In this document: positions 1 through 33,962 of the stretch, in pieces
Position numbering within the stretch: the stretch's first letter is position 1
Layout of the letters: the number at the start of each line of letters is the position of its first letter
NCBI GenBank assembly: GCA_900617105.1
Contig: UYFQ01000120.1
Coordinates: 1 to 33,962 of the forward strand
Direction: 5' to 3'
DNA length: 33,962 bases
Source of the DNA: Hydrurus foetidus
Taxonomy: Eukaryota
Translations under genes and position numbers: made by a program
Notes under the pieces: generated by a model
Told to the model about the DNA's origin: nothing
What the model saw: only the letters and a program-made list of their open reading frames with translations
Databases searched by the model: none

Positions 1-1
1 A

Positions 2-3248: not shown

Positions 3249-3444
3249 TGTGGCCCTGAAGGAACTAGGCTAGAGGGCTAGGAGGTGTTGGGTTAGGCTT
3301 ACAAAGGGGTTGTTGAACTATATATGAGCAGGGAAACATCCTACTAGGGTGCTAGGAGTCTACCTAGAAGTCTACAGTGTGTTTGGGTATGAACCCAAAC
3401 AGACGGAATGGGGTCCAAGGTCCCGAGGGCCCCAGACGGCTACA
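3249..3444 (-). repeat. 3' LTR of gypsy-1
   Basis: Minus strand TGTAGCC...GGCCACA, matches 10171-10366; preceded on the minus strand by PPT GTGGGGGTAG; internal 9-bp hairpin TGTTTGGGT-ATGA-ACCCAAACA at 3380-3401. Confidence 0.97.
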
Positions 3445-3501
3445 CTACCCCCACTTATTTTAACTAAAATTGAAATCAATTTTGAGAATGAATAAACTAG
3501 G

Positions 3502-3640
3502 CTAGCGCTTTTAGGAAGGGCAAGTAAACTAACGCTTCTTAAGGAAGAGTGAAAATGATTTTTTAGAAATGATTTTTATGATCTAAACTAACGCTTCAGA
3601 AGGAAGAGTAACTAAACTAGCGCTTCATAATGAAGGGCAA
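3502..3640. repeat. Four imperfect copies of an about 22-27-nt unit (AAACTARCGCTTC-N5-GAAGRG) in the gypsy-1 3' UTR
   Basis: Copies at about 3502-3523, 3526-3550, 3585-3609, 3614-3640. Confidence 0.8.
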
Positions 3641-3761
3641 CATTTTCAAAAATTAGATGACATTTTTTATTTCCTTTCAGAAATATGTATAAAACACCAT
3701 ACAATGTGTGAAAAGAAAGAAAAAAGGGGGGGTTGTGTGTAGAGTGTGTGTACTCGTGAAT

Positions 3762-3845
3762 GATTATGTCAGATTTGTACTGACTAACCTCCGTAAAAAA
3801 AAACTCAAGTAATTGAGGTAAAAAATATTTAGGAGTAATCTTCAA
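3762..3845 (-). other. Conserved structured 3' UTR element shared with gypsy-3
   Basis: GATTATGTCAGATTTGTACTGACTAA (3762-3787) versus GATTATGTCAGACTTTTACTGACTAA (31766-31791), 24/26 identical, GTCAG/CTGAC stem. Confidence 0.75.
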
Positions 3846-3855
3846 AAGATATCAT

Positions 3856-6800: not shown

Positions 6801-9374
6801 AGGTGTTTCCACTGTAGTAGCTGTTGGAGTACCTTCTGGCATTTCACATAAATGTGCTAGGGTGTACGTACGAGTACGTATGACACCACTATGGTTTGAT
6901 ACATAGTTACAACTGTTACGCGTAGGTTCGACCCCAGCGGCGTTTGGTTGACTAGAGCATCCGACATCAGAACAGTTAGCGACTCTGTTTGAGTCTATTT
7001 TGTGATATGTCATGGTACTGTTACCAGAATGAGGACATACCAAATCATCCTTCTTGCCCACACATTCCGACGGAATGCACTCAGCAGATAAGAAAACTTT
7101 CATTCTTTCGAAGGAGTTCTCCATATTAGGCCTCCCTATTTCGTAGGGAGTCTTCTCGAAGAAGTCATATTTCTTAAGAGTTTTTCGACCCAAAATTAAG
7201 TCGATGGTGTTTGGAATAATCCGCACCGTTAAGAAAATGGTATTAATTAATAAATTATGGGTGACAAAAGTCATTCCAATATCAATTACTTGGTCCCTAA
7301 CATAACATGTGTTATCTAGACCCGAACATATAGTTAAAGCTTTAGAAGAAGTATAAACAAAATCTTGAGCATTTAAACTAATTACAAAATCTTGACTAAT
7401 AAAGTCGCCAGGGAGACTCCCGGTGTCGAGTAGGACCTTTGCCAGAACTCGTTCAGCCCTAAGGGTGGGATGGTGGTGGTTGTTGGGGCTGGTATGCACT
7501 TGGACCCGCACCCCGTCCTTGACTATACTTCGCTGATTAATAAAAATCCAGGAAGATAAGAAGTTAGAATCAATCTCTATTCTGGTTATAGAGGCTGCAA
7601 CAATAGCGTTTAAGGAAACAGATTTACCTTGTTTTCTGTTTCTGCGTGTTTCTGCGTACTGTGCATTGTTAGCGGGGTCGTGTTGACCGGGTAACGTAGG
7701 TACGGTAGCTCCTCCATTGTCAAAACGAGCACGCTTGTTGGGTAGTTGGAGCATCGAGTATCTAAACTCGGACACTGGTTTGACCAGGTAGCGGACAGCA
7801 TGGTTTGGTAGTTGGGCTCCATCATCATAAGCTTCGAAGCCATATGAATGCCACATCTTACCCGCTGTTGAATCTTTCCATTGAAGGTGGAGTTCACTAT
7901 GGTTGGCGTCTGTGCGAAACAGAACTGGACAGAGTCTGACTTCATGTCCAGTGTGACCGCATGAGCGACATGGGATTGGCGCTGGTTGCGGCAACAACTG
8001 AATTATTGATTCAGTTGTTGGTCTCCTCAGCACTGCTGCACTGGGTGAGGATGCATGTGCATGAGCATGTGCAGGTGCAGCAGAAGGTTGAGGGTTAGCT
8101 GGTGAGTTCGCCAGCGCTGACTTGAGGTAGACAGCGGCAGCGTACGAACGCTGTTCAGGGATTATCGGTGTTCTGGCCTGCCGAGTCTCCTGCTCCTGGT
8201 ATTTGCTAAACAGAGTATGAATAGCGGAGGTATCGCCATAATTAGCAACTCGTTCAACGAGCTTCCTAACATTGAAGATGCATTTACCAAGACGAGTGAA
8301 CGCTTGTTCCCACGTTTCGTTCGGTATAGGTTTACCCTCGTTGCCACGAGCCGCGAAATAGTCGCTTTTAAGCTGACTATCCGGTTTCAGTTTTTTCTCG
8401 ATCGTAACTATCAGTGCAGCATGCTGCGCCGGAGTGATCGGTTGGGTATTCTCATAGACCGTTGTTAACGCCTTGAGAGCCATGAAGGATTTTCTCTCAA
8501 TGTCTGCGTTGGTGTAACAGAAAGAGATTTCAAGTCGTGAGAAGTTCTCAACGAGTGTTCTACCAATATCATTTCTGTCGCCAAAGTATTTGGTTATGAT
8601 TTGGGCAGCCTGTTTGACTGTAACATGATTGTACCATGTTGAGTATTTGCTTGGAGAGATGAGAGTGAACTCTGGATCGCTCGCGAACGCATACTGTACC
8701 ACATAGGTGGCAGGGTTAACCACCACCTGGTGTACCAGGAAGTTCTCATGCCATTGATTGGCTTGGTTCTGAAACTGGGCAGCTTGTTCTCCAGTTATCT
8801 CTGGGGTATCAATGATGAATAACGGTTTCTGTAGGTTCAAACCGCCAGTCATTGTCTGCTTCAACGCCGTCGTAACCTGTTCCATATTGTACTGAGGGTT
8901 CGGTTGTGGGTTGGGTACTACGTCGATGACGACGGGCGAGAGAGGTATCTGTCTCTGTTGCTCACGTGGTTTCTCACGTGGTACTCCATCGCTAACGATG
9001 GGTGCGACTGCTGCGTTAAGCAGGGTAGGATCGGGAACGCGAGGTTCAGGAGTCCGCGGTACAGCAATGACGCTGGATGAGCTCGACGAGCTACTCGAAA
9101 TCGACGGTTCGGTTTCAACAAGTTCCTGAAAAGGACTTTGGGCGTCGTATGGAATCTCTCCACACTCTTCTAGATCAGTCAGATGTTGATCAGAAGGAAA
9201 GGATTCCATGTCCATATCTCCCTCATCAGGGTTATCATCCGCATATGAAGCGGGTAAATCAGAATTTTCTTCCAAAGTTGAATTCTCATACTCCGACTCC
9301 ATCAAGGGGTTTCTCCGCCTTGTTTGCGGGTTAGATCCACGCCGTAAAGGCTGAACAGGGTTCTTCTTCACCAT
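3856..9374 (-). CDS. gag-pol: gypsy-1 Gag-Pol polyprotein (Gag, CCHC knuckle, aspartic protease, RT, RNase H, integrase, chromodomain); split by four 1-nt deletions; frame also open upstream to 10076
   Basis: CRSCGHTGHEVRLC; LLDTGS; RFCIDYRNLN, DLTSGYHQ, LPFG, YLDD; TDASDYG, EAYAI, TDHKNL, ADALSR; HHCC zinc finger, IDYIGP, SDRGSHF, ENAIVERVN, WLGPF; chromodomain IEEIVSH...FYVKWLNYDSNHNSWEP. Confidence 0.95.
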
Positions 9375-10159
9375 AGGGTGAGTGTTTTCAGTCAATAATT
9401 CCACACGAAGTGTTGGAATTATATTCTGGAGATTTTCGTATAGAAAACTATCTCCCGACGCCTCGTAAGAAGCGTTTCCACGCTCAACGGGATATAACCC
9501 CGGAACGTTTTTCTCTCTAAGTGGATTGCTTAGGTTTGACTCGGTTTGTTGAACCGGTGTGAATGTCGACTTATAAGTTGGTCGAGTTTGCAAAACAGAA
9601 ACAGGCGTAACACTCAGAAATTCGTTGGTTTCCAACAAATTCGACAAGGTTTCGTGTTGAAACCTCGGTATACAGCGGAGCGAACTTGCTGGAAGTCGCT
9701 TCTCAACTGTTCTCGGTTTGAAAACCGGTCGACTTCGCTTAAAAGCTGAAGGTGCAGGGGTTACGCAAGAGAGTGCTGGGTGTGTGGAAGGAGTAGAGTA
9801 GTAATTAGAGGCGTTATAAAGCGATGAACTCGCGGTTTCTCTATCAAGAGAATGACGTAGGACTGTAGGAGCTACTGTCCACGGACGTGGGTCGGTGAAA
9901 GTTGATGGATTAGACGGAGGATTGTCAGGCGGACGATCTGGATCGTCGTCGGCGTAGGTAATCTCCGGAGTTGGGCAGCGGTTTTCGAGTTCCTCTCGAA
10001 TAGCACGTTGCTCCGCCAAAAACAATCGATCTCTGAGTAGAGGGAACTCTGGAAAGTCCTCTTCACGAGGGATTTCTTAAACTTTCCAGCGAAGCACTGG
10101 AAGACGGCGAAAAACACGAATGAACACTAGGAAACTATAGAAGCTGGTGGGAAGTGGGA

Positions 10160-10171
10160 AGTGACGTCACT
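10160..10171 (-). promoter_or_regulatory. Perfect 12-bp palindrome AGTGACGTCACT at the primer-binding-site position of gypsy-1
   Basis: Starts on the last A of the 5' LTR; no TGG-initiated tRNA-complementary PBS present. The function is inferred. Confidence 0.75.
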
Positions 10172-10366
10172 GTGGCCCTGAAGGAACTAGGCTAGAGGGC
10201 TAGGAGGTGTTGGGTTAGGCTTACAAAGGGGTTGTTGAACTATATATGAGCAGGGAAACATCCTACTAGGGTGCTAGGAGTCTACCTAGAAGTCTACAGT
10301 GTGTTTGGGTATGAACCCAAACAGACGGAATGGGGTCCAAGGTCCCGAGGGCCCCAGACGGCTACA
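10171..10366 (-). repeat. 5' LTR of gypsy-1
   Basis: Matches 3249-3444; TATATA-like box at about 10241-10247. Confidence 0.97.
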
Positions 10367-11468: not shown

Positions 11469-12272
11469 TCATATCTTTGAGAACATGATTTCACTCCGAA
11501 GCACATACTTAATACCGCTCGTCACCCTTTCACCTTCATGCCAACAGTTATGCTGAAATAACAATAACCTTCCAGCCAAAGGGACAACGTCATGTACTTT
11601 TACAAATTGCTGCCGATCGATGATACTGGGCGAAGGTGTTGTAACGTTTTTGCTATACTGTTGTTCAGCGGGTTGTATGAATCGTGTCGCTCCTCCCGTA
11701 AAATCAACGCCTCCGCCGTCATTCAAGTAAAGCTGGAATGTAACAAAACTTTGCTGCTCGCATGTAACTTCTCCTGTCAGACTTTCTGGCTGCACATAGT
11801 ATGAGCCATCCTGATGTAGCTCGAAACGTTCGCCTTCCGAATACTTCAGCACTCTGAATCTGGGGTTAATTCCGGTCGCTATCCAGCCTTTATACCGCAT
11901 TCCTGGTACAATATCTCGATGAGGTAGATGCTCCTGTACCAGGGGCCACAGCAACTCCGCTAGCTCGACGTCATCAATAATACATCGTTGACCGGAACGA
12001 ATGCTGATCAAAGTCACTCCTTTCTCTTGCTGTCCAGACCCTTGGTTTAGCAGTGCCAGCTCAAATCCTTTCGATTCTGAGGTAGCAATCGTAGTTTTAC
12101 AGGAAGAAAGTTGGAGCACATCATCTACGACAATGGCAAATAAGTTTTCGCCTCCAGCGGCGATCAAGTCAATTGTACCAGCAGCAGATGATGATGGAAA
12201 CGAACTCGGTATATTCGCTAATGCGTCAAATGTGGCGTCACCACCTGGCAACTTATGCCATCCACGCCACAT
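11469..12272 (-). CDS. 2-oxoglutarate/Fe(II)-dependent dioxygenase (prolyl 4-hydroxylase-like)
   Basis: RFRVLKY...HQDG (HxD), TFQLYLND, GGATRF, LLLFQH...HEGERVTSGIKYVLRSEIMF (distal His and 2OG-binding basic residues). Confidence 0.9.
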   Translation of the reverse strand: MWRGWHKLPGGDATFDALANIPSSFPSSSAAGTIDLIAAGGENLFAIVVDDVLQLSSCKTTIATSESKGFELALLNQGSGQQEKGVTLISIRSGQRCIIDDVELAELLWPLVQEHLPHRDIVPGMRYKGWIATGINPRFRVLKYSEGERFELHQDGSYYVQPESLTGEVTCEQQSFVTFQLYLNDGGGVDFTGGATRFIQPAEQQYSKNVTTPSPSIIDRQQFVKVHDVVPLAGRLLLFQHNCWHEGERVTSGIKYVLRSEIMFSKI

Positions 12273-12445
12273 GGGACACTCGCGCAGAGATGAGTGCTAC
12301 AGGGCTAATGATGCTGCATCAATGATTTTTGATCGAAGGCGGCGTGTTACCATATTTTTGATTTATTTGATGATCGATCGATGTGATCGCCGATCTACCT
12401 CGTAGGATTTTCAAATTTCAAAAATTCAAAATTTCCTGATTGGAC

Positions 12446-17168: not shown

Positions 17169-18225
17169 TCACTTCACAGGAGTTAGTTCAAATTTGGTCA
17201 CTGAGTTCCAATTAGTCCAGTCCAGCGTTATAAACGAGAACTCCATGCAGCGTGGATCACGATCATTTATGTTTAGTTCTCTATGGAAAATTCGAAATTT
17301 CCTTGCCTCCAAGGTTTCGACGAACGCTTTTATCTTTTTGTAGTCTTCTTTGACAGCTACGTTGTGACCATGAACATAGAAGTCAGATAAGCACATTCAA
17401 GGAAGTCAAATGGCATTTCAAGCAGAAGATAAGATGAACATGTTTTTGATTAGCAAGATAACCATACAGAGCTATTGCAGTGGAAACTTTTGATAGAATG
17501 CGCTGATGGCACAAATCGAAGTCTGTGACAGCGTAATCGAGCACACACTTACCGCCGCCAGGTCGGTGAACTTCTATCATAAGCTGACCAATGCGGGTAA
17601 AAGTGTCAAGTGGCTCATTTGCAATCCATGCAAATTCCCCGATTTCGATGTCTATCTTCAATAAGTCGATGTAAGTGTGTCCTCGTTCCTTCATGAAATC
17701 ATTGAGTAGCCTGTATCTTTTGTCCCCTTTGTTCTGTTTGGATGGCCCCAACGCAGTAGCGGTGTAATTTATGGCGGGCAATCTTCTCTCTGGGACTGGC
17801 AGATTTCTTTCTAAGATATCATGAGTCCAGATACGAGAATCTGGCCTCCAGCGGAGAATAGCCATTTCAAAATCCTGTTGCTGATTGCTTCCAAACGAGT
17901 AGACAATCGGATCTGATTTTATGTGCGTGATGCCGCAAGAATATTTGTGGCCATCTACAACGGAAAATGGGGTATCCTCACCAAGTGGTATAACGCCATA
18001 CATGCAAGGATAGTTTGGATTCAAGTGAATGAATGTATTGAAGTTGAGACTTTTCCGACGCTCTCTGAGTTGATTTTGATAGTAGAGCTCGGCCAATTTT
18101 TCGGCGTGGATGATCAACTGCTTCGTGCTGTGCTGCTTACTTTCGGGGATTTCTGGGTCGCATCTCGATGGTGCTATTGCGGAAGCAAGAAGCAGCACAA
18201 TTGCGAGAGTTGTGGAGGAGGGCAT
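17169..18225 (-). CDS. Secreted or membrane METTL24/FkbM-type methyltransferase-like protein; exons 18225-17553 and 17356-17169
   Basis: Signal-like MPSSTTLAIVLLLASAIA; DGHKYSC, IVYSFGSN, IDLLKIDIEIGEF, IGQLMIEVH, then FRIFHRELN...CMEFSFI; GTAAGT...CGTAG intron 17552-17357 joins in frame. Confidence 0.85.
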
Positions 18226-18604
18226 TGGAGAATGGTAAATTATCACCCCAAGTAAAATCCTTCAATAACACTTGCTTTTGCTGCACGGCCCAGCAGTAAT
18301 GGATGTCAGATTGAGCTGTCGTCTTCTCTACTGTATTAGAGCTACAGCTACAACAGAAATAAATAATACAGCACTTCACTGTTGTTGCAAGAAGTTGTTG
18401 TTGCAACGTTCAGTAACTTCTTCTGTATTCTGTTCCAGTGGATTCGTAAAAGCGGTGGAATTTGTATTTCCAGTGGATACAGAAATCCAGTGGAAGTTCG
18501 GTATCGAACACCACGGGCTTGCGCTAGAGTAAGTCGAATGTTGTGAGTCTATTAATTCTTCAATGTCGAGCAGGACAAATACGGAGTGTCACTAAAGGAA
18601 GAAA

Positions 18605-19790
18605 ATGAATGAAGTTGGCTTAACAGGCGTTGATGCCATCTCAGTTGCTGCGATCATCCTAAAAAGTGGCTTACTTGATGACAAAAGTCAGCACTGTGCA
18701 CAGCATGACTCGTTACTTACAGGACAAATTTACCTCGAAGAACTCAGAGATACAGGCAATCTTGCAAGGTTCAGAAACGTTACACGAATGGACAAGTCCA
18801 CATTCGAAGCTCTGCTTCTTTTACTGGAGACCCAGGGAGAATTCAAAAACTCCAAGTATCTATCAACAGGAGAAAAGCTGCTCATGTTCATTCTCGTGCT
18901 TGTTGGCAATTCTAACAGGGGAATATGTGAGCGTTGGCAACATTCTGGATCAACGACATCTCTCGTAGTGCACGAAGTTGCCGCAGTCATGTTACGTTGT
19001 CATCACCATTTTCTCTTCCCTGCAAAAGTGGACGATCCTGTGGATATTGAGTTCATACAAGTACACGCCTTACTTCAATGATTGCATTGGTGCTTTGGAC
19101 GGAACCCATATCCCTGCAGTGGCGGAACAGAGACCATTCCGGAACAGGAAGAAAGTTCTTACCCAGAATGTCCTTGGGGTGGCTTACTTCGATCAAACTT
19201 TTAGTTGTGTGCTCACAGGATGGGAAGGTGGTGCACATGACAGTAGAGTATTGAATGATGCTAAAACTAAGGGATTGCCTCTATTCCCGAATAAATACTA
19301 TCTAGGCGATGCTGGGTATGGGTTGTCAAAGCATGTTCTTACACCTTATCGAGGTGTTCGATACCATCTTTAAAAGTGGGGCAATGCTAATCAGAGACCT
19401 CAGAATGTGAAAGAACTTTTTAATTATCGTCACTCATCAGTTAGAAATGTCGTTGAGAGAATATTCGGCGTTGTCAAAAAAAGATTCCCTGTACTTGTTG
19501 TCATGAAGTCATATTCATTCTCATTTCAATGCGATCTTGTCATGTACTCCCTAATGCTACATAATTTTATACGATCCAATCAACTATACGACGATGAATT
19601 TAACGCACCTATCCCTCCAGGTGAAAGGGATGTAGAAGATGATTTGGATGATTTAGATGATGTCGATGAAGCACATGGAAATTGTAATCAATTGAAACAA
19701 TGGAGAGACGGCATTGCTAATGAAATGTGGAATGATTATCTTGTTTATGCAAACAATAACGACTTGGAATCTGACGAAGATGAGGTTTGA
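18605..19790 (+). pseudogene. Harbinger/PIF DDE transposase (HARBI1-like), frameshift near 19050 and stop at 19371
   Basis: FRNVTRMDKSTF, ERWQHSGST, DCIGALDGTHIP, GWEGGAHDSRVL, YYLGDAGY, LFNYRHSSVRNVVERIFGVVKKRF. Confidence 0.93.
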
Positions 19791-21366: not shown

Positions 21367-21877
21367 TGTTGGATATTATGGAACTAGGAACTAGGGTGTG
21401 ATTCCAGTTAGACCGTTCCTTACGGCACTAGTTCAGGATCTGGGATTTCGTAAAATCACCCTATGGGGCGGAAAATACTTAAATTTTTCCAGAACTCAAA
21501 AACTCAGAACTCGAGTTCTGGAAAAACAGGGTCATTTTTCCAGAACTCAAGTTCTGAGTTTTTGAGTTCTGGGAATTTTCAAATTCCAGGAACCCCGAAC
21601 TCATGCCGTAAGGAACGGTCTTAGTGCATGTATGAGTACTTACGGTGCGGTCAGCGGTGTAAGTGCGTATGGGTTTATCAAAATCATACAAATTGTTTTA
21701 GATTAGAATTGTTCGAGTGTGTAATGCAAGCTTCGTGAACTGGCAAAGTAGGAATGGAGTTCTCAAGCTTAATTGACAAGTGAATAGCAATCAACAATTC
21801 TATTTTACGAGCCTTGGAGAGAATCGGTAACAGCTCGGACTACCAGCGCAACCTGGGTGTTACTCGGTTTTCCAACA
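21367..21877 (+). repeat. 5' LTR of copia-2 (298 bp plus MITE)
   Basis: Aligns to 28599-28886 with about 10 substitutions, a 10-bp indel and the MITE insertion. Confidence 0.95.
21411..21620. mobile_element. 210-bp Tourist-like (PIF/Harbinger) MITE
   Basis: Perfect 17-bp TIR GACCGTTCCTTACGGCA / TGCCGTAAGGAACGGTC, TTA on both sides, absent from the 3' LTR; internal CAGAACTC/GAGTTCTG inverted repeats. Confidence 0.95.
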
Positions 21878-21907
21878 CAATTAAACTTATTAGCAGCATC
21901 GAGATCG

Positions 21908-23464
21908 ATGCCGCCGAAGAAATTCGATGATCCTTAATCAGATGCACCAGGAGGGTGTATCCTGCAAATAGGAAAGCATAACAACATCGTAATGTGGAAG
22001 GAGGAACTCGAGAATGAGGTTACCGGACTATACGGCAAGATGGGGATGTTCTTCACCACCGACGAGCGGTACATCATTCCGTTTCCAACGGAAGAGAACT
22101 ACAATCCAGCTGACATCGCACCTGTGCCAGCGTTGGTAGAGGACGAGGACGATCCGGATGGAAACGAGGCTGCAGCTGAAATGCATGCTGAGGCAGTGGC
22201 CGCACATGCAGTTGCAGTTGCACAATTACCGGTCGTATCTGCGGCCGCACTCGCAAAGTTTAGAGATGCAGCTCTAGACCGACGCAGTAAAGAGATGTAC
22301 AATCAGTCTCTTAACGAGAAAAAGTCTCCTTGCTATGGGGTAGAATGTCTACGGCGTCACAGTCGGCGATTCGTCAGGACCCCGAGTTCGAAACTGCTCG
22401 TCTTAACTTAGATGCAGTCGCTCTATGGAAGCTAATCAAGGAAAGTCATCTAACACACATCTATGGTGAGGATGACTCCCTTAGGTCGTATAACATGTAT
22501 GAGCAGATATCAAGGTATAACAGCCTCAGACAGGGTGATCGTGAGGCGATAGCAGACTTTAAGACAAGGTTTGACAATCAGGTGAAAGCAAACGATGGGG
22601 TCGGAGTCGCACCTTTAGAAGAAAAGCTGAGAGCTATTGACTTCTTATGCAAACTCGACCCTAAACGTTATACACCGATGTTGACCAGCATGCGTAATAA
22701 CGCAGCACAAAACCTCGCGTCAAGTTACCCTGTGACATTAGCAAAAGCCTTTAGGGTCGCATCATCATGGACCAGCAACGGAAGTTCAGGCCCGAGTGGA
22801 TACGAGCAACACTCTGCTTTCCTAACCGATACTGTGTTCGTGACTAAAGCGAGAGATTCGGGAAAAGGAAAGGGTGATAAGACACCAGAGGAAGGAAAGG
22901 GCGGTAAGACACCAGATGAAAAGAAATCGAGAACGAGATCGACAGAGGGTATCACATGCTTCGTATGTGGAAAAGGTCACTTCGCCAAAGACTGTCCGAT
23001 TCGAAAACAGCCAGAGGCAGCACTCGTAGTCGCAGCCTCGCAGCGACTACGAGTAAGTGATGAAGACGACGGAGAATACAGTGATCAGGAAGCGATATAC
23101 CTGACAACGGATGAGAGAGTGCTCTTCTCCAGGAGTCATGTGCTCCTGGATAATCAAGGATCTGTGAATGTGTTCAATAATCCAGAGCTCCTCACGAACA
23201 TTCGAGATTCGGCTACGGGGATTCTACTTAGCGGCGTCCAGGCAGGTGCCACTGGAGTCAAGGTTACGAAAGTTGGGACATTCAATGAGCTAGGAGAAGT
23301 ATACTACAGCAAGCTGGCTAACGCGAATATCCTCTCATTTGCTGCAATGATCGACAGAGGAGCATTGATCAAATACGATGGGATTGCAGAGTGCTTTACA
23401 TTGAAGTGGCCATCAAGCAAAGGGACTTACATTTTCAAGAGACTTCCTATCGATGGGAGCGAAG
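21908..23464 (+). pseudogene. gag: copia-2 gag + protease, interrupted at 23465 by gypsy-2
   Basis: ATG 21908 with in-frame TAA at 21935, frameshift near 22328; LRQGDREAIADFKTRF, CFVCGKGHFAKDC knuckle, LLDNQGSVNVF...ANILSF protease. Confidence 0.9.
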
Positions 23465-23672
23465 TGTGATAGTACCGGGTCCAGGGTCCTGATCCTACCG
23501 GGTACCGACTCTACCGGATCCTACCAGGTACTACTACTGTACACTACAGTGAGGCTGTCGTGTCGTCAAGGCCATCTGCAGCGTCCACTCAGAAGTTAAC
23601 TAGCTTCTCGCATAGACACCTGTAACTAAGCCTACCTACTCTCGACTCCCTTTCCCCATTTGCCCGATCACA
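23465..23672 (+). repeat. 5' LTR of nested gypsy-2
   Basis: TGTGAT...ATCACA 6-bp inverted termini exactly where the copia ORF breaks; 208 bp; partner LTR absent. Confidence 0.8.
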
Positions 23673-23683
23673 ATAGATCTATT
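23672..23683 (+). promoter_or_regulatory. Perfect 12-bp palindrome AATAGATCTATT at the primer-binding-site position of gypsy-2
   Basis: Starts on the last A of the LTR, same register and length as in gypsy-1; no tRNA-type PBS. The function is inferred. Confidence 0.75.
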
Positions 23684-24248
23684 AGCCTCGGGAAATTTTC
23701 TACTGCCCCTAATTCCCCCTCTACTCGTCCAAACTTAAGCTAAAACTTCCAACACTGAGTACGATATACTCACGACATCTACGGAGTCGAAATTCTCGCT
23801 GAGCTACGCTCCAAGAACTTAGTTTAAGTTAGCGAAAGTTGGGCTTAGCCTCTTTCATCTTGGAACCCATTACTGGTGTCTCCAAAGTTCGTAGTTGGTT
23901 GAATTCGCGAAAGCCTTCACCACTCGACAACTTAAAACTCGTCGGGTTGCAATTTGAACGTTGGATTCATTGCTAGCGACACCAAATTAGTCTAAGGACT
24001 TCTTTTGGTCGGTGGGAATTGCTTCCTTCATCCTTTACGGACACCAAAATTTTTCTCCACTCAAAATTTGGCTTTTACGCCTAAGAGATTTTCTCAACAA
24101 GAGTTGGTTGAAACCAAGTTATTCGCTGTTACTTGCGTAAAGTACCCTCAAAGCTAACGAGGTGAAGCCCTCGCAAATTCTTTTTGACGAGGAGATTGCT
24201 TAGTCGCTTAGACTTTGACGGATTTATAACTTCCTATCGTCGTATAAC

Positions 24249-26700
24249 ATGACAGAAGAAGAGGCAACTTATCCTCGTTACGACGATGAGTGAAAACTCA
24301 TCGTAGATCCTCCAGTTGTTCCCACTGAGGAAGAGGAAGTGCCCGAAGAGGATGGGGGTATCTTAAATGCCACCCAAACCTCACAGTCTTCGGTGGCGCA
24401 GACTATTATGTTTCCCCAGACTATGCAGATGCAGCGAGAGATATTCGTCCTGAAAGGCGATTACATCACTCCCCAAGACGCTGAGGAGTTCTATGAGCAA
24501 TCTCAGCGTCTGCCTCAGTTGCGCATTAACGAATGCATGCAACGCCAAGCGATTGACTTGCTACACGTCAAGATTATGACAGACATAAATCATTTTTCAG
24601 AAATGACACAAGAACGAAGGTTCGAGTGGCAAACTGTACTTGATATTGATTATGTTGCAAAACTAATCATGCAATACTTTGGCTCGAATAAACAACGAGA
24701 CCATAGGGATCATACCCTAGCGGAACTTTTCGCTAAAGTACCATTCTATTACTCACTCAATTCCGATGAGGAAGAGTTGAGCATGTACATGGCGTACAAG
24801 GAACTCGTAACCAACTACGAGCGTACCCGACGTATCACTCCCAACCAACATGTGGAGTCGGTAACGCTTTTGGAAAAGCAACTCGCTCGTGGCAGTTGCA
24901 TCCAATCAGACTATTTTGAGTCTAAACGGGGCGACTCGATGTCACCTCACACGTGGGAGACTGCCATGATGCGCATCATCACGGTCGTTTCCGCAGCACG
25001 CGAGGCCATCCGAATGAGCAGGAGCTACGGCAACCCTGATCATATCTACTCGTTTCCGAGTACCGCAGTACCTCCTCCCCGCTCATCGAAGAAGAGGGGG
25101 AGTACACTTGCAACACGCGAGGCGGAACCACCTAGTGGCAAAGGCACCCTAGCGGTTCGTACCTCATTGGACGTACCCCTAGTGGCTGCTCGAGTCTGCC
25201 GCTCGTGTGGAAATCCTGCACGCATGCTTCCCGTATGCCCCGTGTTATACTACACTGACACTAATAACGATCACTCCATTAACTGGTCGGAGTCAGTTGT
25301 CGGTCGTGCATGGTTAGCTAACGGTGAAGCCATGTGGCAGGAGAGGTTAATCCTTCCCGGTTACGAAAACCGTCAAAGATACCACCCCGCTGGTTCTCCA
25401 CCCTTCTTGATGTTCACCAACAAGAAGTCCAAGAATAATCATGGGTCGGGTAACCAAAGTAACCCCAACCAAGGTAACCAAGGAAACCAAGGTAATAACC
25501 GAGGCAACCAAAGCCAAGGAAATCAAGGTAACCAAGGTAACCAGAATAACCAAGGTAACCAAGGTATCCAAGGAAATTTTAACCGCGGCAACCAAAACCA
25601 AGGTTCTGGTAACCAGAGTGCTGGTAGGGGTTACAAGGGGAAAATCCCCGTGGGGGAAAATACAACCCACCCCAGGGGGGACCCAACTCGTCTTCCGATT
25701 CAGCGGGACAAAACCAAGGTACAAATGATTATGATGTTGATACTACCGGATGTTACGTCGTTCATTTCCCATGTCGATACACTTCCAACGCTTATTCAAG
25801 ATGAATATTTGCATGACCCTTCCACTCTCCCTTCTAACCACTTGAACGTCACTGTTTCGGTGCAGGATAAGGACAAGGACAGCAGGACTAGCGTACGATG
25901 CATTGTGGGCAAGGCCGTCTTAGACACCGCCAACTATTCATATTTCTTTTCTAATGATTCAAAAACTAAATGCTATGCATCTCTGTTATGAGGCTCCTAA
26001 AGCCATAACTGTTTGCTCTGGTCTCAATGGCCATTGCTATATAAAAAACGAAATTATTAATTTGACTCTCCAATTTCATTCTTATGATGGCGAATGTCAC
26101 ACTGTCCCACTAACCTTGCGAGTTAATAGGAATACAGAGATTGAACTTTTGATAAGTCGCAAAACTGTAAATAAATATGATTTTATGTCATATGGTATCT
26201 CTCCTGAGCTCAGTGCGGAGAACAAAAAGATAAGGGATACTCGTTGGTGCGAGTTTGAAGAAAGGGAAGCGATAGCAAAGCTTGACCCGCTTCACTGGCA
26301 CAAATACACTAACATGTCACGGAACAATTTCAAGATCCAACCTATGCCGGAATCGGTCATACGTACACTCAACGCGGCGGCAGCAGCAGAGGGACGTAGT
26401 CTTAAACGACAATCTGACGTGTTTTTCGACATGCAGTACATGCATAGCGTCAACTTTCCTAACATACCTACGTTCTTTCAACCCAATCTCAATCAGGCGG
26501 CGCGTCAAGAGGTATCTATACCTTCCATACCGTCCCTGATCCCCTCGGCGGCGCTTTCTGGTCTCTCAGACGGCAATCCATCTGAAGACTATAGACGTGA
26601 CGGCACAATCCACCCAGCCGAGGGGGGAGTACTACGATCTAATCTAGGCTCCGGGGATCGTGCAGCGGGGGAAACCGAGCAAACCACCCAACCTCTGACG
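24249..26700 (+). pseudogene. gag: gypsy-2 gag-protease, degenerate
   Basis: ATG 24249, in-frame TGA at 24291, knuckle His lost (CRSCGNPARMLPVC), VLDTA protease motif followed by a frameshift, then ITVCSGLNGHCY matching gypsy-1 LTICSGLDNTCY. Confidence 0.85.
25449..25617 (+). repeat. Degenerate 9-bp tandem repeat (AACCAAGGT)n encoding an (NQG)n tract
   Basis: GNQSNPNQGNQGNQGNNRGNQSQGNQGNQGNQNNQGNQGIQGNFNRGNQNQGSGNQS. Confidence 0.9.
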
Positions 26701-26879
26701 ACAGACCCCCCCAACCCACGGTCAATATTTCACGGCGGCATCATTCCTCCAGTACCAGAGCCCGAGATAGAAGCAGCCTTAGTAACAGAATCAACCGCAG
26801 CGAAATCCGACGCGCACCTCGATGAAATTAACCACGTCCGCGATACAGTCAATCCTCGATATGCTGGAGAAGAAGAGAG

Positions 26880-28534
26880 ATAGCGGTGTGACAAGCGATA
26901 CGAGCAATGTGAGCGTTTGTCAGGCTCTACTCACAAATGGAGCTGAGGTGAAGCGAGTGATCGAGAAAAAACTCCAGCAAATGTTGGATAAGAGGGTATG
27001 GACACCAGTATAGCCATCCAAGCTGAGTAGCACCGAAGTCTCGTCGATCATACGGTCATCAATGTTCCTGAAGAGAAAGAACTTTCCGGATGGCAGATTT
27101 GAGAAGTACAAGGCACGGCTAGTTGCAGGCGGGGATCAGCAGGACAAAAACCTATATGACGACTTATCCAGTCCAACAGTATCAACGAGTTCTGTGTTCA
27201 CCATGCTCTCAATCAGTGCTTACGAGAATCGACATACTGCTGTAGTCGACATTGGGGGAGCATTCCTTAACGCCAACATGACGACAGGAGTCAACGTGTA
27301 CATGCGTTTGGACAAAACTATGATCGACATCCTCTCTACCCTTCATAAAACCTACAGGTCCTACACTGACAGCAAAGGTCGTATAGTGGTGCTAGTAAAG
27401 AAGGCCTTTTATGGATGTGTTGAGAGCGCCGCTCTCTGGTACGAGAATTTACACTCCACATTGAAGTCGCTAGGATACCCAAGAAATGAGAGGGATATCT
27501 GTGTGTTCAATAAACTGGGCGAAAAGGGGGTGCAGTGCACTGTCACGGTGCATGTCGATGATTTGTTGATCATGAGTAAAAGCAAGACTATGATCCACGA
27601 GCTCGCAGACGGACTCCGCACTAGGTATGGGGAGATTACCCTGAACCATGGACCTACCCCAAATTACCTCGGAATGGATTTAGATATATCAGTCACAGGT
27701 GAGGCACGGATAACCATGAGCGGGTACGTCGACGATGTGCTAACCACAGCGGGAATACTGGGTGTATCGAAAACACCAGCCACCGATTGATTGTTCACCG
27801 TGAGAGAGGATACCGAACTGGCACCAAAATCAGTCAGGCAGTGGTTCCACAAGATCGTGGCAATGCTACTGTATCTATCAAAGAGAGCGCGCCCCGATTG
27901 CCTTACTGCTGTGTCCTACCTCGCAACCAGGGTGACTAAGTGCGATACGGACGATGTCGGGAAGTTAGTCCGGTAAGTGCGGTACATACGGGGGACTAGA
28001 GAAATGGGGGGGTGTTGAGACCAGGCGAGATGGGGGTGCAAGTCAAACTATATGTCGACGCATCATATGTTGTTCACACTGATGGACGTTCACACACTGG
28101 AAGTTGTGTGGTTATAGGGGACGTCGGGTCAGTCCACTGTCGATCTACCAAGCAGCAGATAGTCACAAAGTCGAGCACGGAGGTGGAGCTAGTGGGGCTA
28201 TCCGACTCGGCCAACCAGGCGATCCACATCCAAGATTTTCTCTCCCTGCAAGGTTACAAGCTTGGTCCTATTGTGGTGTACCAAGACAACTTGTCGTGTA
28301 TGGCACTACTTGAGCGAGGGGGTTCTGGGGCAGAGCATACACGGCACATTTCCATCCGCCACTTTTCATAAGGAGCGAGTGGACAACAGCGAAATGTTGA
28401 TCAAGCACAAGGGGACGAAGAAGACATATGCGATTGCACTTACAAAGCCGCTTCAAGGTGCACAGTTCCAGTACGAGAGGGAGTGCCTCACCGGATGGCC
28501 GCACCAAGGAGCGATGCAGAAGATCTTAGCTTAG
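26880..28534 (+). pseudogene. pol: copia-2 RT + RNase H with several stops and frameshifts
   Basis: KYKARLVAGG, SPTV, DIGGAFLNA, KAFYGCVESAALWY, HVDD, RPD, YVDAS, KSSTEVE, DNLSC, LTKPLQG. Confidence 0.93.
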
Positions 28535-28598
28535 TCTGCACTGTAGTCATGTGCGTGTGTCATTGCCTGCGCACTAACTAGCATCCACCTTAGGGGTG

Positions 28599-28886
28599 TG
28601 TTGGATATTATGGAACTAGGAACTAGGGTATGATTCCAGTCAGTGCATGTATGAGTACTTACGGTGCGGTCAGCGGTGTAAGTGCGTATGGGTTAGTCAA
28701 AACCATACAAATTGTTTTAGATTAGAATTGTTCGAGTGTGTAATGCAAGCTTCGTGAACTGGCCAAGTAGGGATGGCTTAGTTGACAAGTGAATAGCAAT
28801 CAACAATTCTATTTTACGAGTCTTGGAGAGAATTGGTAACAGCTCGGACTACCAGCGCAACCTGGGTGTTACTCGGTTTTCCAACA
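28599..28886 (+). repeat. 3' LTR of copia-2 (288 bp)
   Basis: See 5' LTR; followed by TSD CAACC. Confidence 0.96.
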
Positions 28887-28999
28887 CAACCCTCCGCTGA
28901 AAGGACTGTCGGAATAACTAATGAGCTAAGTAACCGTATAAGTTATTGCGTATGTACATTTAATGACGTCTCGTACGTCGTGTGCTGTGTGGAGGTCGC

Positions 29000-29229: not shown

Positions 29230-31514
29230 TTAGACATTAGGAAACAATTTGCAATCGTGATTTCTTGCATTGTGACGAAGCATCCTCCACGCATATGAGC
29301 GACGAGCGTGAGAGCTTTGAAACTTTGTGTGAGATGTTGGCGGGACGCTGACGAGAAATGGCATAAGGTTGCGGTGAAGATGCACTGGTGGGGCCTTTGT
29401 GAAGAAGTCAGCCAAGTTATGCTCGCCTTGACGCCAAGTGACTTTGAATTGTTTTTGACGGACTCTATCTCGTATCCAATGGAACTGCATATCGATGGAT
29501 TTTGTTTTCCTGGGTGTGACAGTATCAGAGGCGAGTCCAACAGTGCACATGTTGTCACACAGAATGTCGGTTGTAGGTTGGGAGTAGCCGAGACTATCGA
29601 GAATATCTCGGAGAGAGGCCCCCTCTTTTGCATTCATAAATACTGCTGCATACTCTACTTCAGCAACTGATGAGATGATGACAGGAATGATAGAACTGAG
29701 AGTCAGACAGGGATCATTGATAGTTGTTGGTTGATTGTTGTTACCAAGGTGGAAAATGCCACCTGCGACGGAGCGTGCCTTTGGGCGGGAAAGGTATGAA
29801 GCGTCGGATTGTATAAGAAGTCGCATATCGCAGGCTGTGAAAACAATTGCGTTTTCGGGAAATCGGGCACAATACTGAAGAAGGCGATCCATAGCAGCAG
29901 CAACCATGACGGTAGGTTGAATTGTAGAGATGCGATGTGGTTGACTGCTGGGAGTATGGTAGCATCAACTCCTCTGGCATAGTGGAGCAGACAGCCGACT
30001 TGCTCCTGATGTCTTTTGATGGCTGATGGTGGTAAGACTGATGAGGTGTCGGAAGTAACGGTTTGTGTTGGAGCACCATATGATGGAGGAATGTAGACGG
30101 CGGGAGAGGCAGCACCGAGACAAAGATGTGGAGCGAATCGCTCTAACACTTTGCTGATGTAGCCGGGCATAGTGAGGGAAACTTGGCGGGATGTGTTGTT
30201 GAAAATAATCATAAATCCGATGCATGTGGACCTGGTCCAGTTGATGGTGATAACGTAGAGCAGTTGTAGGGTGCGAATATGATGATCAGCGCCAGCCTGA
30301 TTCGAATATATTATTCCAAAGTCATCAACAACAAAAGTGAAAGCAGTGCCGTTGGAGGTGTGCCGAAACAGGCCGGAGGCGGATGTTTCATGATAGCCAT
30401 GGTTGGCGAAATGGGCCATTAAGCGTTGTTGTGCTAATAGTCCGGCTTGGAGAAGGCCATACATACCTTTATTGACTTAAAATAGAATCGCGTTTTGATG
30501 GACATACGGTTTGAGACAGCGGGTAGCGATAGTAGTGTTGGGTATCATACGACATGGAATCCGGATGAATTCAGGACGAAGTAGGGGAGTGTTGAGCTAA
30601 TAATCTTTGTTATCGATTGTCATCCACTTTTTATGCTCAGAGACGAAGGAGTGCAGCAAAAGCTTGAGGACTGGCATGGCAGCTGTTTGCGCTGATGTAG
30701 GGCCGTTGTAGTTGATTTTATCGCCTCCAGCTGTACCGCGAATGCGATAGGTAGTGGAGTCGGTAGAGTCAATTTTTTGTTTTGTTTGCGGATTGACATA
30801 GGTAGTATCCCGACGACGATCGGTTGGCTGGTCGCACTGTAGGATAGGTTCTATCGTATGTGACGTGAGCAGGCAATCAAACTCTTCTGCCTCGGCTTGT
30901 AGCCACCCTGCAGCATCAGATCCGGCTTTTGCTTTAAAGTATGTTAGAGGGCTTCCATCTGCAGCCAAATTAAGTGCAGTGTGGGCGCGCCGACGCGCAG
31001 TATGCTGTCGAGTTGCTGGCGAGGCGGTGGTTTTGGTATTGTAGGTGGCTGTTGGGATGGTTGGAGAGGAATATTGGGGAGAGCGTCGATGGTGGAGATC
31101 TCAGACATCGATTGAGGGGAGGGCACACTATCCGTATCAGGCACCCTCTGTTCCGTGGGGGACGTGTGTGCAAGTGGGTGATATAATGCTGCTGGTAAAG
31201 TTATATTGGTCGAAATTGGTGCCAAAGGGATGTGCACCCTCTGTTCGGTGGCATCAGAATTGTCATTGACTGCATCGATTGGTAAGATAGGGTCTGAAGT
31301 AGGATTGTATAAAGCTGCGATATCGAGGAGCTGTTTGGTGATAGTTGGAATGTTGCTGAGCTGACGCCGGTGATGGAAAGCGGGGTGAGTGCTTGTGGTA
31401 GTTTGGAGGGCGGTGGTATGGCCTGAAGCGGGGCCTAGGACGGAGGACGGAGGTTTCGCTGGTTTGAGCGCGAAGGCGTGGGACAAGAGAAGACGTCGTT
31501 AGGAGAGTTAACGT
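29230..31514 (-). pseudogene. pol: copia-3 RT + RNase H remnant (a different copia lineage, resembling diatom CoDi-type)
   Basis: YRIRGTAGGD, MYGLLQAGLLA, VVDDFGI, SDASYLS...ARSVAGG, SVAEVEY, KSIDMQFHWIRDR, NLADFFTK; multiple frameshifts; cut at 31515 by gypsy-3. Confidence 0.9.
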
Positions 31515-31681
31515 TGTGATTATAGGTTACAGTTAAAGGATAGGTGATGTACTGTCTCCTAGCAGGGTGGGAGATCTATCTGGAACTAAGACCTAAAACT
31601 GGAATCTGGGCGTATTGTACCTATTGTACCTAGTTAACTTAGACACATTGTATCCACTAGAGATGCAATAAGGCAATAATA
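31515..31681 (-). repeat. 3' LTR of gypsy-3
   Basis: Minus strand PPT GGAAGAATGGGTAG (ends GGGTAG as in gypsy-1), then TATTATT...ATCACA; the first dinucleotide is TA instead of TG. Confidence 0.7.
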
Positions 31682-31900
31682 CTACCCATTCTTCCTTTTT
31701 TGAAAATTACAGGATACGCATATTAACAAAAAAAGTACAAGTATATGAAAGATATATTATAAAACGATTATGTCAGACTTTTACTGACTAAACTCTCCAA
31801 AAAACGAAGGTTAAAAAAATAGGAGAGAATCCTCATGGATAAAGTTTCAAGGATATATGTATATCAACGGTGTTGTTTATTGATTAATTTTGTCATATTA

Positions 31901-33962
31901 TTATGACAAATAATCATGGAGTTTATCAACATCACGAAGACTTGAGTAAGGTTCCCAAGTGTTTTTGTCAGAAGGGTAATTTAACCACTTGACTAAAAAC
32001 TCTATATGGGTACGTTGATGTTTGCCACGATGATCAAGAATATCTTCAACAAAGTATTCCATGTGATCACGTCGTGCAACATCTAACGGATTTGTGATCG
32101 ATGGGTCAAATAGAAAAGGTTTCATGTAGAAACATTCTGATGTTTTCTGAGTGACTAGATCATATAAGGTGTAACGCGAATTTTCGCCACTAACGACTTT
32201 TAATGGACCTCTCCAATGCGTATGAAGACGTGAAGGAGGGGATCCATCGCGATAGTGCACTAAGACATAAGAGTCTTTTGGATACTCTACATGCTGAAAG
32301 ATTTGAGACTGACTTTGATGAAGCAAATCTGTGCGAAGAAGCTCTTTAGCCGAAGCTTTAAGAAGGCTATCTTGCGTTTTGAGTAGATTGCTCATACGCT
32401 TTGACAAAGGTTTGTCATCAGTAACATTTCGCTCAGCAGGAGGTAAAAAGATACCTCTATCGAGTTTCAGTACATTTCCGAAAAGAAGTTGAGAAGATGA
32501 TATCTTCAAACGATCACTGTGGTTAGAATTTAAAATTCGTTGCACAAATGGAAGTGATGTTTTATAATCTTCTAGTGTGACATTATCGAATGTTAATGCA
32601 CGAAGATGTCTATTAACTTCTTTATTCATGCGCTCAACAATAGCATTTTCTTCTTTAGAATATGCTAAAGTAAGACAATGTTGAGTGCCAATAAGAGTTA
32701 GAAACTCTTTAATAACTTCGGAAATGAAGTGTGGCCCATTATCAGAACGGAGTTGGAGAGGTGCGCCGAAACGACCGAAATGTTGCAAGAGGCATTTAGC
32801 TGTTGAAAGTGCCGTAGCATCTTCTGTATGAAACAGTTCAACCCATCTTGTGAACGTATCGATAATTACGAGTACGTACCCGCCGTCTGGAAACGGTCCT
32901 ATGAAGTCTATGTTAAGGCATTCCATAGGTGTGTAAGTAGAAGTCGAGAAGCCATGAGCATGTATTGGTATCTTTAACATACTCATCTTCTGACAACACG
33001 AACAGTGATCTATGAACCACCTGACATGCTGTCGCATATATTGCCAAATTTTTTTGTCTTTGAGACGCTTTAGAGTGCGCTCAAGACCGAAATGCCCAAC
33101 TTGTGAGTTGTGTACTTTACTGATAGTATTGTACTGCTCACGTGTTAGTTTAAATTTCTCAATAATATTAGCAGACATGATTGCATCAGGAGTATATTCC
33201 TGAGGGAAGTCAACCATGTTATTGCGACAGAGTCTAGACATCGAATCGGCTATATCATTGTTAGGTCCAGGTATGTATTCAATCGGATAAGGCCATAAAC
33301 CACCGAACAATCATTGGATTTGAATTATCCTTTATGTATAACAAGTTACGATGATCTGTACGTAATGTAAACGTACGATCACGTAATAGCGATTTTAAAT
33401 ACGTGCACGAATAAAAGATAGCATATGATTCTTTCTGTATTACAGCCCAACGAAGCTGTGCTTTGCTGAGTGATTTACTGACAAATGCTATGGGCATTTC
33501 TCGACCGTCAACTAACTGAAAATGATAGGCACCTACACCATAGTCCGATGCATTTTGAAATCTCAGATTTGATCAAATTGAATGCTCTGAGAGCTTCTAT
33601 TGTCCAAGTTATTTTCTTATACTTATTGTAGTTAAGAAGCAACTGATGTAACGGGTATACAACAGTAGAAGCGTTTCCAACAAAGTCGTGAAAATAATTA
33701 ACCATTCCTAAAAAACTTTTAAGTTGTTTAGATAGTACTGGTTTAGGAAAATCTAAGACAGTCCGTATTTTTTCTTGTGACATTCTAAGTCATCAGCAGA
33801 TAGAACTTTGCCAACATAGTCTATTTCGGCATAGCCTAGATAACACTTATTCGGTTTAAGGAATATTTTGTGTTTTCTAAATCGATCAAACACAAGACGA
33901 AGTCTAGTAATAAGTTCGTCAATGTCTTTACCGAAAACATTGCAAACATCGATGTACATTTC
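31901..33962 (-). pseudogene. pol: gypsy-3 pol (RT end, RNase H, integrase, chromodomain), degenerate, continues beyond the window
   Basis: YIDV (mutated YIDD), SFLGMVNYF, TDHRNL, ADSMSR, HHCC, IDFIGPF, SDNGPHF, ENAIVERMN, WRGP, VEDILDHR...FLVKWLNYP...TWEP; RNase H N-terminus partly deleted. Confidence 0.93.

Follow-up and report, generated by a model that had tools for sequence, protein, structure and literature searches.

Nearly all LTR retroelements start reverse transcription with a host tRNA. The sole tested exception to tRNA priming that we know of is the Tf1 group, and the primer site of Tf1 pairs with the first 11 bases of the element's own transcript. Reverse transcription copies from the base adjoining the 3' end of the primer, and that base becomes the end of the LTR. 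Self-primed reverse transcription is attributed to Tf1/Tf2 and to the Tf1/sushi group (PMC5445492, PMC6934838). Fungal copia elements of the GalEa type carry a Conserved Hairpin Site. Its first part is nine bases long and, when read together with the final A of the LTR, forms a 10-bp palindrome, given as A+CTGATCAGT or A+CTAATTAGT in the 2017 study (PMC5445492). A second arm, CHSeq2, is a near-complement located 12–41 bp downstream, with which a hairpin is formed, and the authors state that no known priming model fitted (PMC5445492). The GalEa site is also cited in a paper on bivalve TRIMs (PMC6934838). Short palindromes of the 5' leader which let two genomic RNAs pair, namely, HIV-1 DIS and Ty1 PAL, form a further point of comparison; they lie apart from the primer site, in hairpin loops, alongside a tRNA primer site.

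The window analysed here is a 33,962-nt stretch of Hydrurus foetidus DNA (contig UYFQ01000120.1). Pfam domains and repeat comparison resolve it into a patchwork of eukaryotic mobile elements. A copia RT fragment (1–1599, plus strand) is followed by gypsy-1, a complete Ty3/gypsy element (3249–10366, minus strand). Farther along are a copia element with an RVT_2 domain (21367–28889, plus strand), interrupted by gypsy-2 at 23465, a second copia fragment (29230–30476, minus strand) and the integrase and chromodomain end of gypsy-3 (31901–33310, minus strand; Pfam rve, Integrase_H2C2 and Chromo). Two genes located between the elements look like host genes, one for a 2OG-Fe(II) oxygenase domain protein (11469–12296, minus strand) and the other for a Methyltransf_22/FkbM-type methyltransferase (17383–18261, minus strand). 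A PIF/Harbinger-type transposase gene, interrupted by a stop or an intron, lies at 18969–19790, where one of two neighbouring ORFs matches one half of DDE_Tnp_4 (E 6e-9) and the other the remaining half (E 2e-7). No tRNA gene was found in the window. The ends of the interrupted copia element are set by its target duplication CAACC. Its LTR repeat match covers 21367–21880 and 28599–28889, slightly beyond the true LTR ends, which we read at 21877 and 28886; the sequence downstream of the 5' LTR is CAATTAAACTT, which is not a palindrome. The copia 5' LTR also carries a 214-bp insertion (21409–21622) which has no counterpart in the 3' LTR. With direct and inverted repeats in its interior, as well as the palindrome GAACTCGAGTTC, this insertion resembles a small MITE-like element.

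The LTR of gypsy-2 breaks the copia Gag/protease frame at 23465, and the copia RVT_2 (RT) ORF resumes at 27014. This 5' LTR is 208 bp long (23465..23672, plus strand) and reads TGTGAT...ATCACA, with TGTGAT at 23465–23470 and ATCACA at 23667–23672. At the primer-site position lies the perfect 12-bp palindrome AATAGATCTATT (23672..23683, plus strand), which is identical to its reverse complement. The first A of the palindrome doubles as the closing base of the LTR (23672). This agrees with the original observation of a palindrome abutting the LTR. A second copy of the gypsy-2 LTR was not found in the window by blastn. Its right edge probably lies at 23672, because of the 6-bp terminal inverted repeat, the CACA end common with gypsy-1 and the register of relatives whose LTR ends are defined by LTR pairs. 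A Gag-like ORF (24294..25991, plus strand) with a degenerate zinc knuckle and an N/Q/G-rich repeat is followed by a protease-like ORF (25924..26883, plus strand). The former has zero Pfam matches and 13 homologues in a public protein collection, among them P0009, which aligns across 24402–26310, so that homology reaches into the protease-like ORF as far as 26310. The stated homology to the gypsy-1 Gag is borne out at 24% identity (E 2e-30). The element is 3'-truncated after the protease-like region, lacking RT, integrase and 3' LTR; with a domain content of Gag and a protease-like part only, it is placed in Ty3/gypsy because its Gag is homologous to those of gypsy-1 and P0009. Gypsy-2 had been described as nested. 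It is indeed inserted in another element, but the host is copia rather than gypsy and the insert is cut off. Clusters of Gag-like proteins in the protein atlas point, though only weakly, to diatoms (score 0.91; 6 members have a known phylum). Within the Gag ORF, a repeat with a 9-base period (25449–25603) codes for the N/Q/G-rich run, and the homologues P0001 and P0009 have low-complexity runs at the same place.

Gypsy-1 has the characteristics of a chromovirus-like Ty3/gypsy element, with TG..CA LTRs, a polypurine tract and RVT_1, RT_RNaseH, Integrase_H2C2 and Chromo domains. Its 196-bp 5' LTR, TGTAG...CCACA (10171..10366, minus strand), is 100% identical to the 3' LTR (3249..3444, minus strand), which is preceded by the polypurine tract AAGTGGGGGTAG (3445..3456, minus strand). 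The LTR end is fixed because the continuations of the two copies diverge, ...GGCCACA being followed by GTGACG in one case and by CACCCA in the other. Here too, a perfect 12-bp palindrome, AGTGACGTCACT (10160..10171, minus strand), has the last LTR base as its first A. It contains TGACGTCA, which we take to be a bZIP/CRE-type site. Despite the identical LTRs, the coding region of gypsy-1 (3856–10076, minus strand) is split over at least five overlapping frames (6558–10076, 6247–6576, 5006–6361, 4695–5042 and 3856–4728); assembly indels, programmed frameshifts or a very young defective copy are possible reasons.

Gypsy-2 is thus a second gypsy family with a palindrome at the primer-site position, different from that of gypsy-1 and in the same register, as had been proposed. 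The LTRs lack evident similarity, again as stated: blastn gave no match and global alignment 99 identical of 268 columns. Neither LTR is followed by a TGG tRNA-type start (ATAGATCTATT in gypsy-2, GTGACGTCACT in gypsy-1). With 19 perfect 12-bp palindromes in the window, the chance of one at a given position is about 5.6e-4; for two unrelated LTR ends to have one in the same register, it falls to about 3e-7. Our main reading, to which we assign a probability of roughly 0.6, is that AATAGATCTATT is the likely minus-strand primer site of gypsy-2 and would pair with the same palindrome on a second element RNA rather than with a host tRNA.

The gypsy-2 region has matches in public runs of one organism as well as in those of freshwater biofilm and sediment metagenomes. 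Contigs and reads from these runs were aligned on 23200–24400, and then on 23640–23720 at a 3% threshold; the gypsy-2 repeat contigs are 50–190 bases long. At 23465, the summed contig depth rises from about 1e3 to 2.6e5–7.7e5, and the gypsy-2 family is therefore very highly repeated. Leftward from this position, at least 22 contigs of run X1, at least 20 of run X2 and at least 6 of 26 RNA reads of run X22 continue into a polypurine tract, ...AAGATAAGTGGGGGTAA. The depth step and the running on of other copies into this tract confirm 23465 as the left LTR edge. Among the contig ends listed for these alignments, none departs from the LTR at 23672 for a flank. The family tract is close to the gypsy-1 tract AAATAAGTGGGGGTAG, and the core of the latter is common to the family tract ...ATAAGTGGGGGTAA. 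Position 23668 is C in most family copies, so that the family LTR ends ...ACCACA; the ATCACA end holds for the present copy but not for most others. For 23640–23720, the sole difference among those listed in four runs is G>T at 23685, found in nearly all of the depth. None of the listed variants at or above 3% falls inside 23672–23683 in these runs, with 151, 97, 56 and 22 contigs aligned. Sequences of the family also occur in poly(A)-selected RNA (the X22 reads). Signs of activity include these RNA reads, the huge repetition of the gypsy-2 family and the identical LTRs of gypsy-1.

Relatives were searched for in metagenome contigs with an alignment of the C-terminal halves of the gypsy-1 and gypsy-3 integrases (46% identity); a Gag alignment that included gypsy-1 was too divergent to serve as a query. 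This yielded 80 contigs with integrase matches of 32–49% identity. A closer Gag alignment gave 317 pattern matches in metagenome contigs, none of which was confirmed, and no relative in viral contigs, where the integrase alignment picked up one weak locus (L001, 27% identity) with no informative palindrome. Five of the 80 contigs contain both the 5' LTR-to-internal and the 3' LTR-to-flank junctions, and each of them has a palindrome that opens with the final LTR A. The LTR ends and following sequences are ...ACTACA and ATAATATTATT in L008, ...ACCACA and GTAATATTACT in both L033 and L050, ...AGCACA and GTAATTACT in L045, and ...ATCACA and ATAACGTTATT in L048; in L045 and L050, the 3' flank matches the next 1 and 3 internal bases, respectively, and the LTR end is fixed only within that many. 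Together with gypsy-1, the register is the same in six of six pair-defined junctions. The 3' LTRs of the pair-defined elements do not contain the palindrome.

A perfect palindrome of at least 10 bp anchored at ACA is found at the expected distance from the integrase in 40 of the 80 contigs, a descriptive count rather than a blind test since the windows were chosen after the positions had been seen. The scored windows were 150–1000 bp after the integrase match or 3000–5600 bp before it, the former arrangement coming from contigs with both LTRs collapsed into one. Many contigs are such collapsed assemblies, with integrase, one LTR and palindrome, in which the LTR end is deduced rather than pair-defined. 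Among contigs with at least 300 nt of scored windows, the palindrome is present in 39 of 62. In 30 shuffles of the contigs, such cases averaged 2.5 and never exceeded 6, versus 40 in the real set, and anchoring on the opposite strand gave 11 contigs. The density of sites is 53 in 91.5 kb inside the windows, versus 13 in 281 kb outside. Relaxed forms are found in 10 further contigs. In L009, L041, L011 and L024, the palindrome begins just past CA, whereas L014, L076 and L027 have an LTR ending TCA, L012 and L017 an imperfect 22-base palindrome, and L068 a mutated LTR end. Most of the other 30 contigs are not long enough to include the junction. The order integrase, one LTR, palindrome and gag is seen in L006, L021, L025, L028, L034, L036, L044, L052, L054, L055 and others, and several one-LTR contigs have identical ends of 55, 123 or 127 bases. 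Such contigs are most simply products of assembly collapse of two LTRs; tandem arrays or one-LTR circles look the same.

The palindromes are built as either A-ATA...TAT-T or A-GT...AC-T; their centres vary, and they measure 10–16 bp. In an integrase tree of 72 rows, gypsy-1 and gypsy-3 belong to a 24-row clade with support of 99, together with palindrome-bearing contigs. Across 38 rows of the tree there are 19 distinct perfect palindromes and at least 22 changes, all of which keep the symmetry; these rows were picked for perfect palindromes, and the count therefore measures turnover under symmetry and not the frequency of symmetry, which rests on the six pair-defined junctions and the windowed contig count. 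Sister pairs with different palindromes include L044 and L050 as well as L028 and L073. The closest case is that of L021 and L064, which are about 93% alike over 400 nt and whose palindromes differ only in the centre, CG versus TA, a double change that preserves the symmetry. Conversely, AATATTAATATT recurs in six contigs on distant branches. The covariation for which the two families of the window had been put forward as a control thus extends well beyond them. At the level of sequence comparison, it is established that the design characterises this clade of Ty3/gypsy elements as a whole, evolves fast, strictly keeps its symmetry and has no partner in cis.

Could such sites be a by-product of palindrome-rich DNA, without function? 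The window does have a general excess of palindromes: it contains 19 perfect 12-bp palindromes, versus 8.2 +/- 2.8 and at most 15 in 100 Markov-1 shuffles, and 7 perfect 14-bp palindromes, versus about 2 expected, the two primer sites being only two of the 19. The constant register in all pair-defined elements, the 40 contigs against 2.5 in shuffles, the symmetric changes between close relatives, the invariance of the site among family copies (for listed variants of at least 3%) and the absence of such a palindrome from the copia element of the window all speak against chance, which is hardly credible as an explanation.

We searched the surroundings of the sites for a partner sequence. An exact 8-mer of the palindrome core is present elsewhere between -600 and +300 at only 1 of 41 sites. 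The best 10-mer match in 300 nt of the LTR exceeds that of shuffles at 2 of 36 sites (p<=0.05), which is the chance level, and the best 10-mer match in the downstream 100 nt does so at 0 of 36 (p<=0.05). Self-priming of the Tf1 type is ruled out by the lack of an LTR complement in both the 8-mer and the 10-mer comparisons. A second arm of the CHSeq2 type is likewise ruled out, there being no downstream match above shuffles and no fold signal. A general stem enclosing the palindrome, for which CCCGA/UCGGG in gypsy-2 looked plausible, was rejected as well: over 36 sites the mean z is -0.12, with none below -2. The folds of the gypsy-2 junction are unremarkable (z 0.20 and -1.17). That of the gypsy-1 junction has z -2.13 over 121 nt, which comes from helices outside the palindrome. 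The computed energies of the homodimer duplexes are -19.3 kcal/mol for gypsy-1 and -11.6 kcal/mol for gypsy-2. Single-strand hairpins reach -1.8 and 0 kcal/mol, respectively, and the mixed gypsy-1/gypsy-2 duplex is negligible at -1.3 kcal/mol. Since the trait is clade-wide and symmetric and has no partner in cis, the candidate mechanisms narrow to self-pairing.

The proposed course of priming can be outlined as follows. Two packaged element RNAs would pair over 10–16 bp at the palindrome. One of them would then be cut immediately 3' of the palindrome. To our knowledge, the sole precedent is the cutting of an RNA duplex by the RNase H of Tf1, and the activity has been shown for Tf1 only. The 3'-OH created in this way would be paired with the final A of U5 and prime the copying of U5-R on the partner RNA. 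Pairing of the last base of the primer with the final A of U5 would also explain why this A is part of the palindrome. Since the LTR end is the base next to the primer and 3' LTRs do not contain the palindrome, it is to the palindrome itself that the primer would have to anneal. Different families, two of which share one genome, have different palindromes, and the primer would therefore be element-specific and no common host RNA. An element-specific primer, in turn, points to self-pairing, as nothing but a further copy of a palindrome is complementary to it.

The same geometry, including the start at the final A in the six pair-defined elements, would also suit a version in cis, in which the RNA is cut 3' of the palindrome and its end snaps back as a small hairpin to prime its own U5, with no second RNA involved. 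The computed stability of such hairpins is very low (-1.8 and 0 kcal/mol, where the duplexes reach -19.3 and -11.6), a 10-bp palindrome would leave only about three pairs, and there is no larger enclosing stem that could help, as follows from the folds of the 36 sites. Priming in cis therefore appears quite improbable.

For a host RNA as primer, be it the 3' end or an internal fragment of a tRNA, or another small RNA, the symmetry would be incidental. In some copia-type elements internal tRNA fragments do prime, and an internal tRNA-Lys match is given for FunCo1 by Donnart et al. (PMC5445492). By contrast, the two families of the Hydrurus genome have unrelated sequences at this position, GTGACGTCAC and ATAGATCTAT, and the relatives have 19 different ones, none of them beginning with TGG. 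A 12-base self-complement without a loop is unsuited to an arm of the tRNA cloverleaf, which further counts against this source. With so many different palindromes, priming by a host tRNA cannot fit, and we regard a host RNA of any of these kinds as very unlikely.

The strongest competitor, in our view still unlikely, is that the palindrome serves as a dimerisation or packaging signal, or is bound by a protein dimer, for instance of a host factor, Gag or integrase, with another primer being used. The outer bases are semi-conserved, AATA..TATT or AGT..ACT, which could mean recognition by a protein rather than free pairing, and the gypsy-1 site contains TGACGTCA, presumably a bZIP site. Palindromes also make up the dimer initiation sites of retroviruses (PMC5445492). 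Yet a protein site would conserve its sequence, whereas here we find 19 sequences with variable centres and lengths of 10–16 bp. Moreover, a primer must anneal at the LTR edge, where there is nothing else: there is no TGG tRNA-type start after either the gypsy-1 or the gypsy-2 LTR, and the palindrome, being absent from 3' LTRs, is not located upstream of a true primer site. Pairing between two element RNAs at the palindrome thus remains the preferred reading.

If two element RNAs do pair at the palindrome, different palindromes may avert heterodimers between families residing in the same genome, as was originally suggested. The computed energies of the homodimers (-19.3 and -11.6) and of the mixed pair (-1.3 kcal/mol) fit this idea, although they are only consistent with it. 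The presence of AATATTAATATT in six distant contigs indicates that uniqueness of the palindrome is no rule and weakens the idea of heterodimer avoidance. We hold only tentatively, and with more doubt than belief, the broader proposition of a clade of chromodomain Ty3/gypsy elements in freshwater protists which would dispense with tRNA priming, have their RNAs pair and sacrifice one of them as primer, with palindromes acting as family-private keys. If true, genome dimerisation and the start of reverse transcription would be a single event, and the palindrome of each family would be a private key against cross-priming by co-resident families.

Comparison with the described systems places these sites closest to GalEa. 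As in GalEa, there is no tRNA-type primer site, the palindrome includes the final LTR A, and there is no complement in U5. The description of CHSeq1 applies to gypsy-2, gypsy-1, all five pair-defined relatives and, at the strict ACA anchor, 40 of the 80 contigs. There are also differences. Whereas GalEa is a clade of Ty1/copia, the present elements are Ty3/gypsy, with RVT_1 and a gypsy-order integrase bearing a chromodomain. Their palindromes are longer (10–16 bp) and far more varied, and they lack CHSeq2 (0 of 36 sites) and form no hairpin. With Tf1 they share the chromovirus-type Ty3/gypsy affiliation without a tRNA site, a primer that is most likely the element's own RNA and the need for a duplex cut to obtain a 3'-OH. 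Unlike in Tf1, there is no LTR complement (2 of 36 sites at p<=0.05); the site is self-complementary, and its partner would be the same site on another molecule. The resemblance to HIV-1 DIS and Ty1 PAL lies in the ability of a short leader palindrome to let two RNAs pair, but here the palindrome occupies the position of the primer site itself and no enclosing stem is detectable. A published palindromic primer site in gypsy elements or chromoviruses was not found in full-text searches of the literature outside subscription journals. What is new here is thus a palindromic primer site in a different superfamily, Ty3/gypsy, and without the hairpin arm; the kind as such is known from GalEa, where it is unexplained. 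In practical terms, these very abundant elements will be overlooked or misjudged by LTR finders for which a tRNA match is obligatory. The design also lends itself to a clean genetic test, in which symmetry is broken and restored and rescue is sought between half-site mutants.

The 5' part of gypsy-3, and with it the LTR junction, falls beyond the end of the window. Its integrase lies within the 24-row clade of palindrome-bearing relatives, and its nearest integrase relatives all have AATA...TATT palindromes. A putative 3' LTR of gypsy-3 is located at 31517–31690 (minus strand), after ...GGAAGAATGGGTAG and ending ...CCTATAATCACA; its start is not TG. Two minor observations concern short sequences near the ends of these elements. 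The 6-base palindrome GACGTC is found some 8–10 bases upstream of the primer-site palindrome in L004, L006, L023, L026, L035 and L038, and is also the core of the gypsy-1 site. Finally, just past the integrase stop, a 42-base non-coding block is 83% alike between gypsy-1 (3759–3800) and gypsy-3 (31763–31804), and may represent a conserved signal upstream of the polypurine tract.
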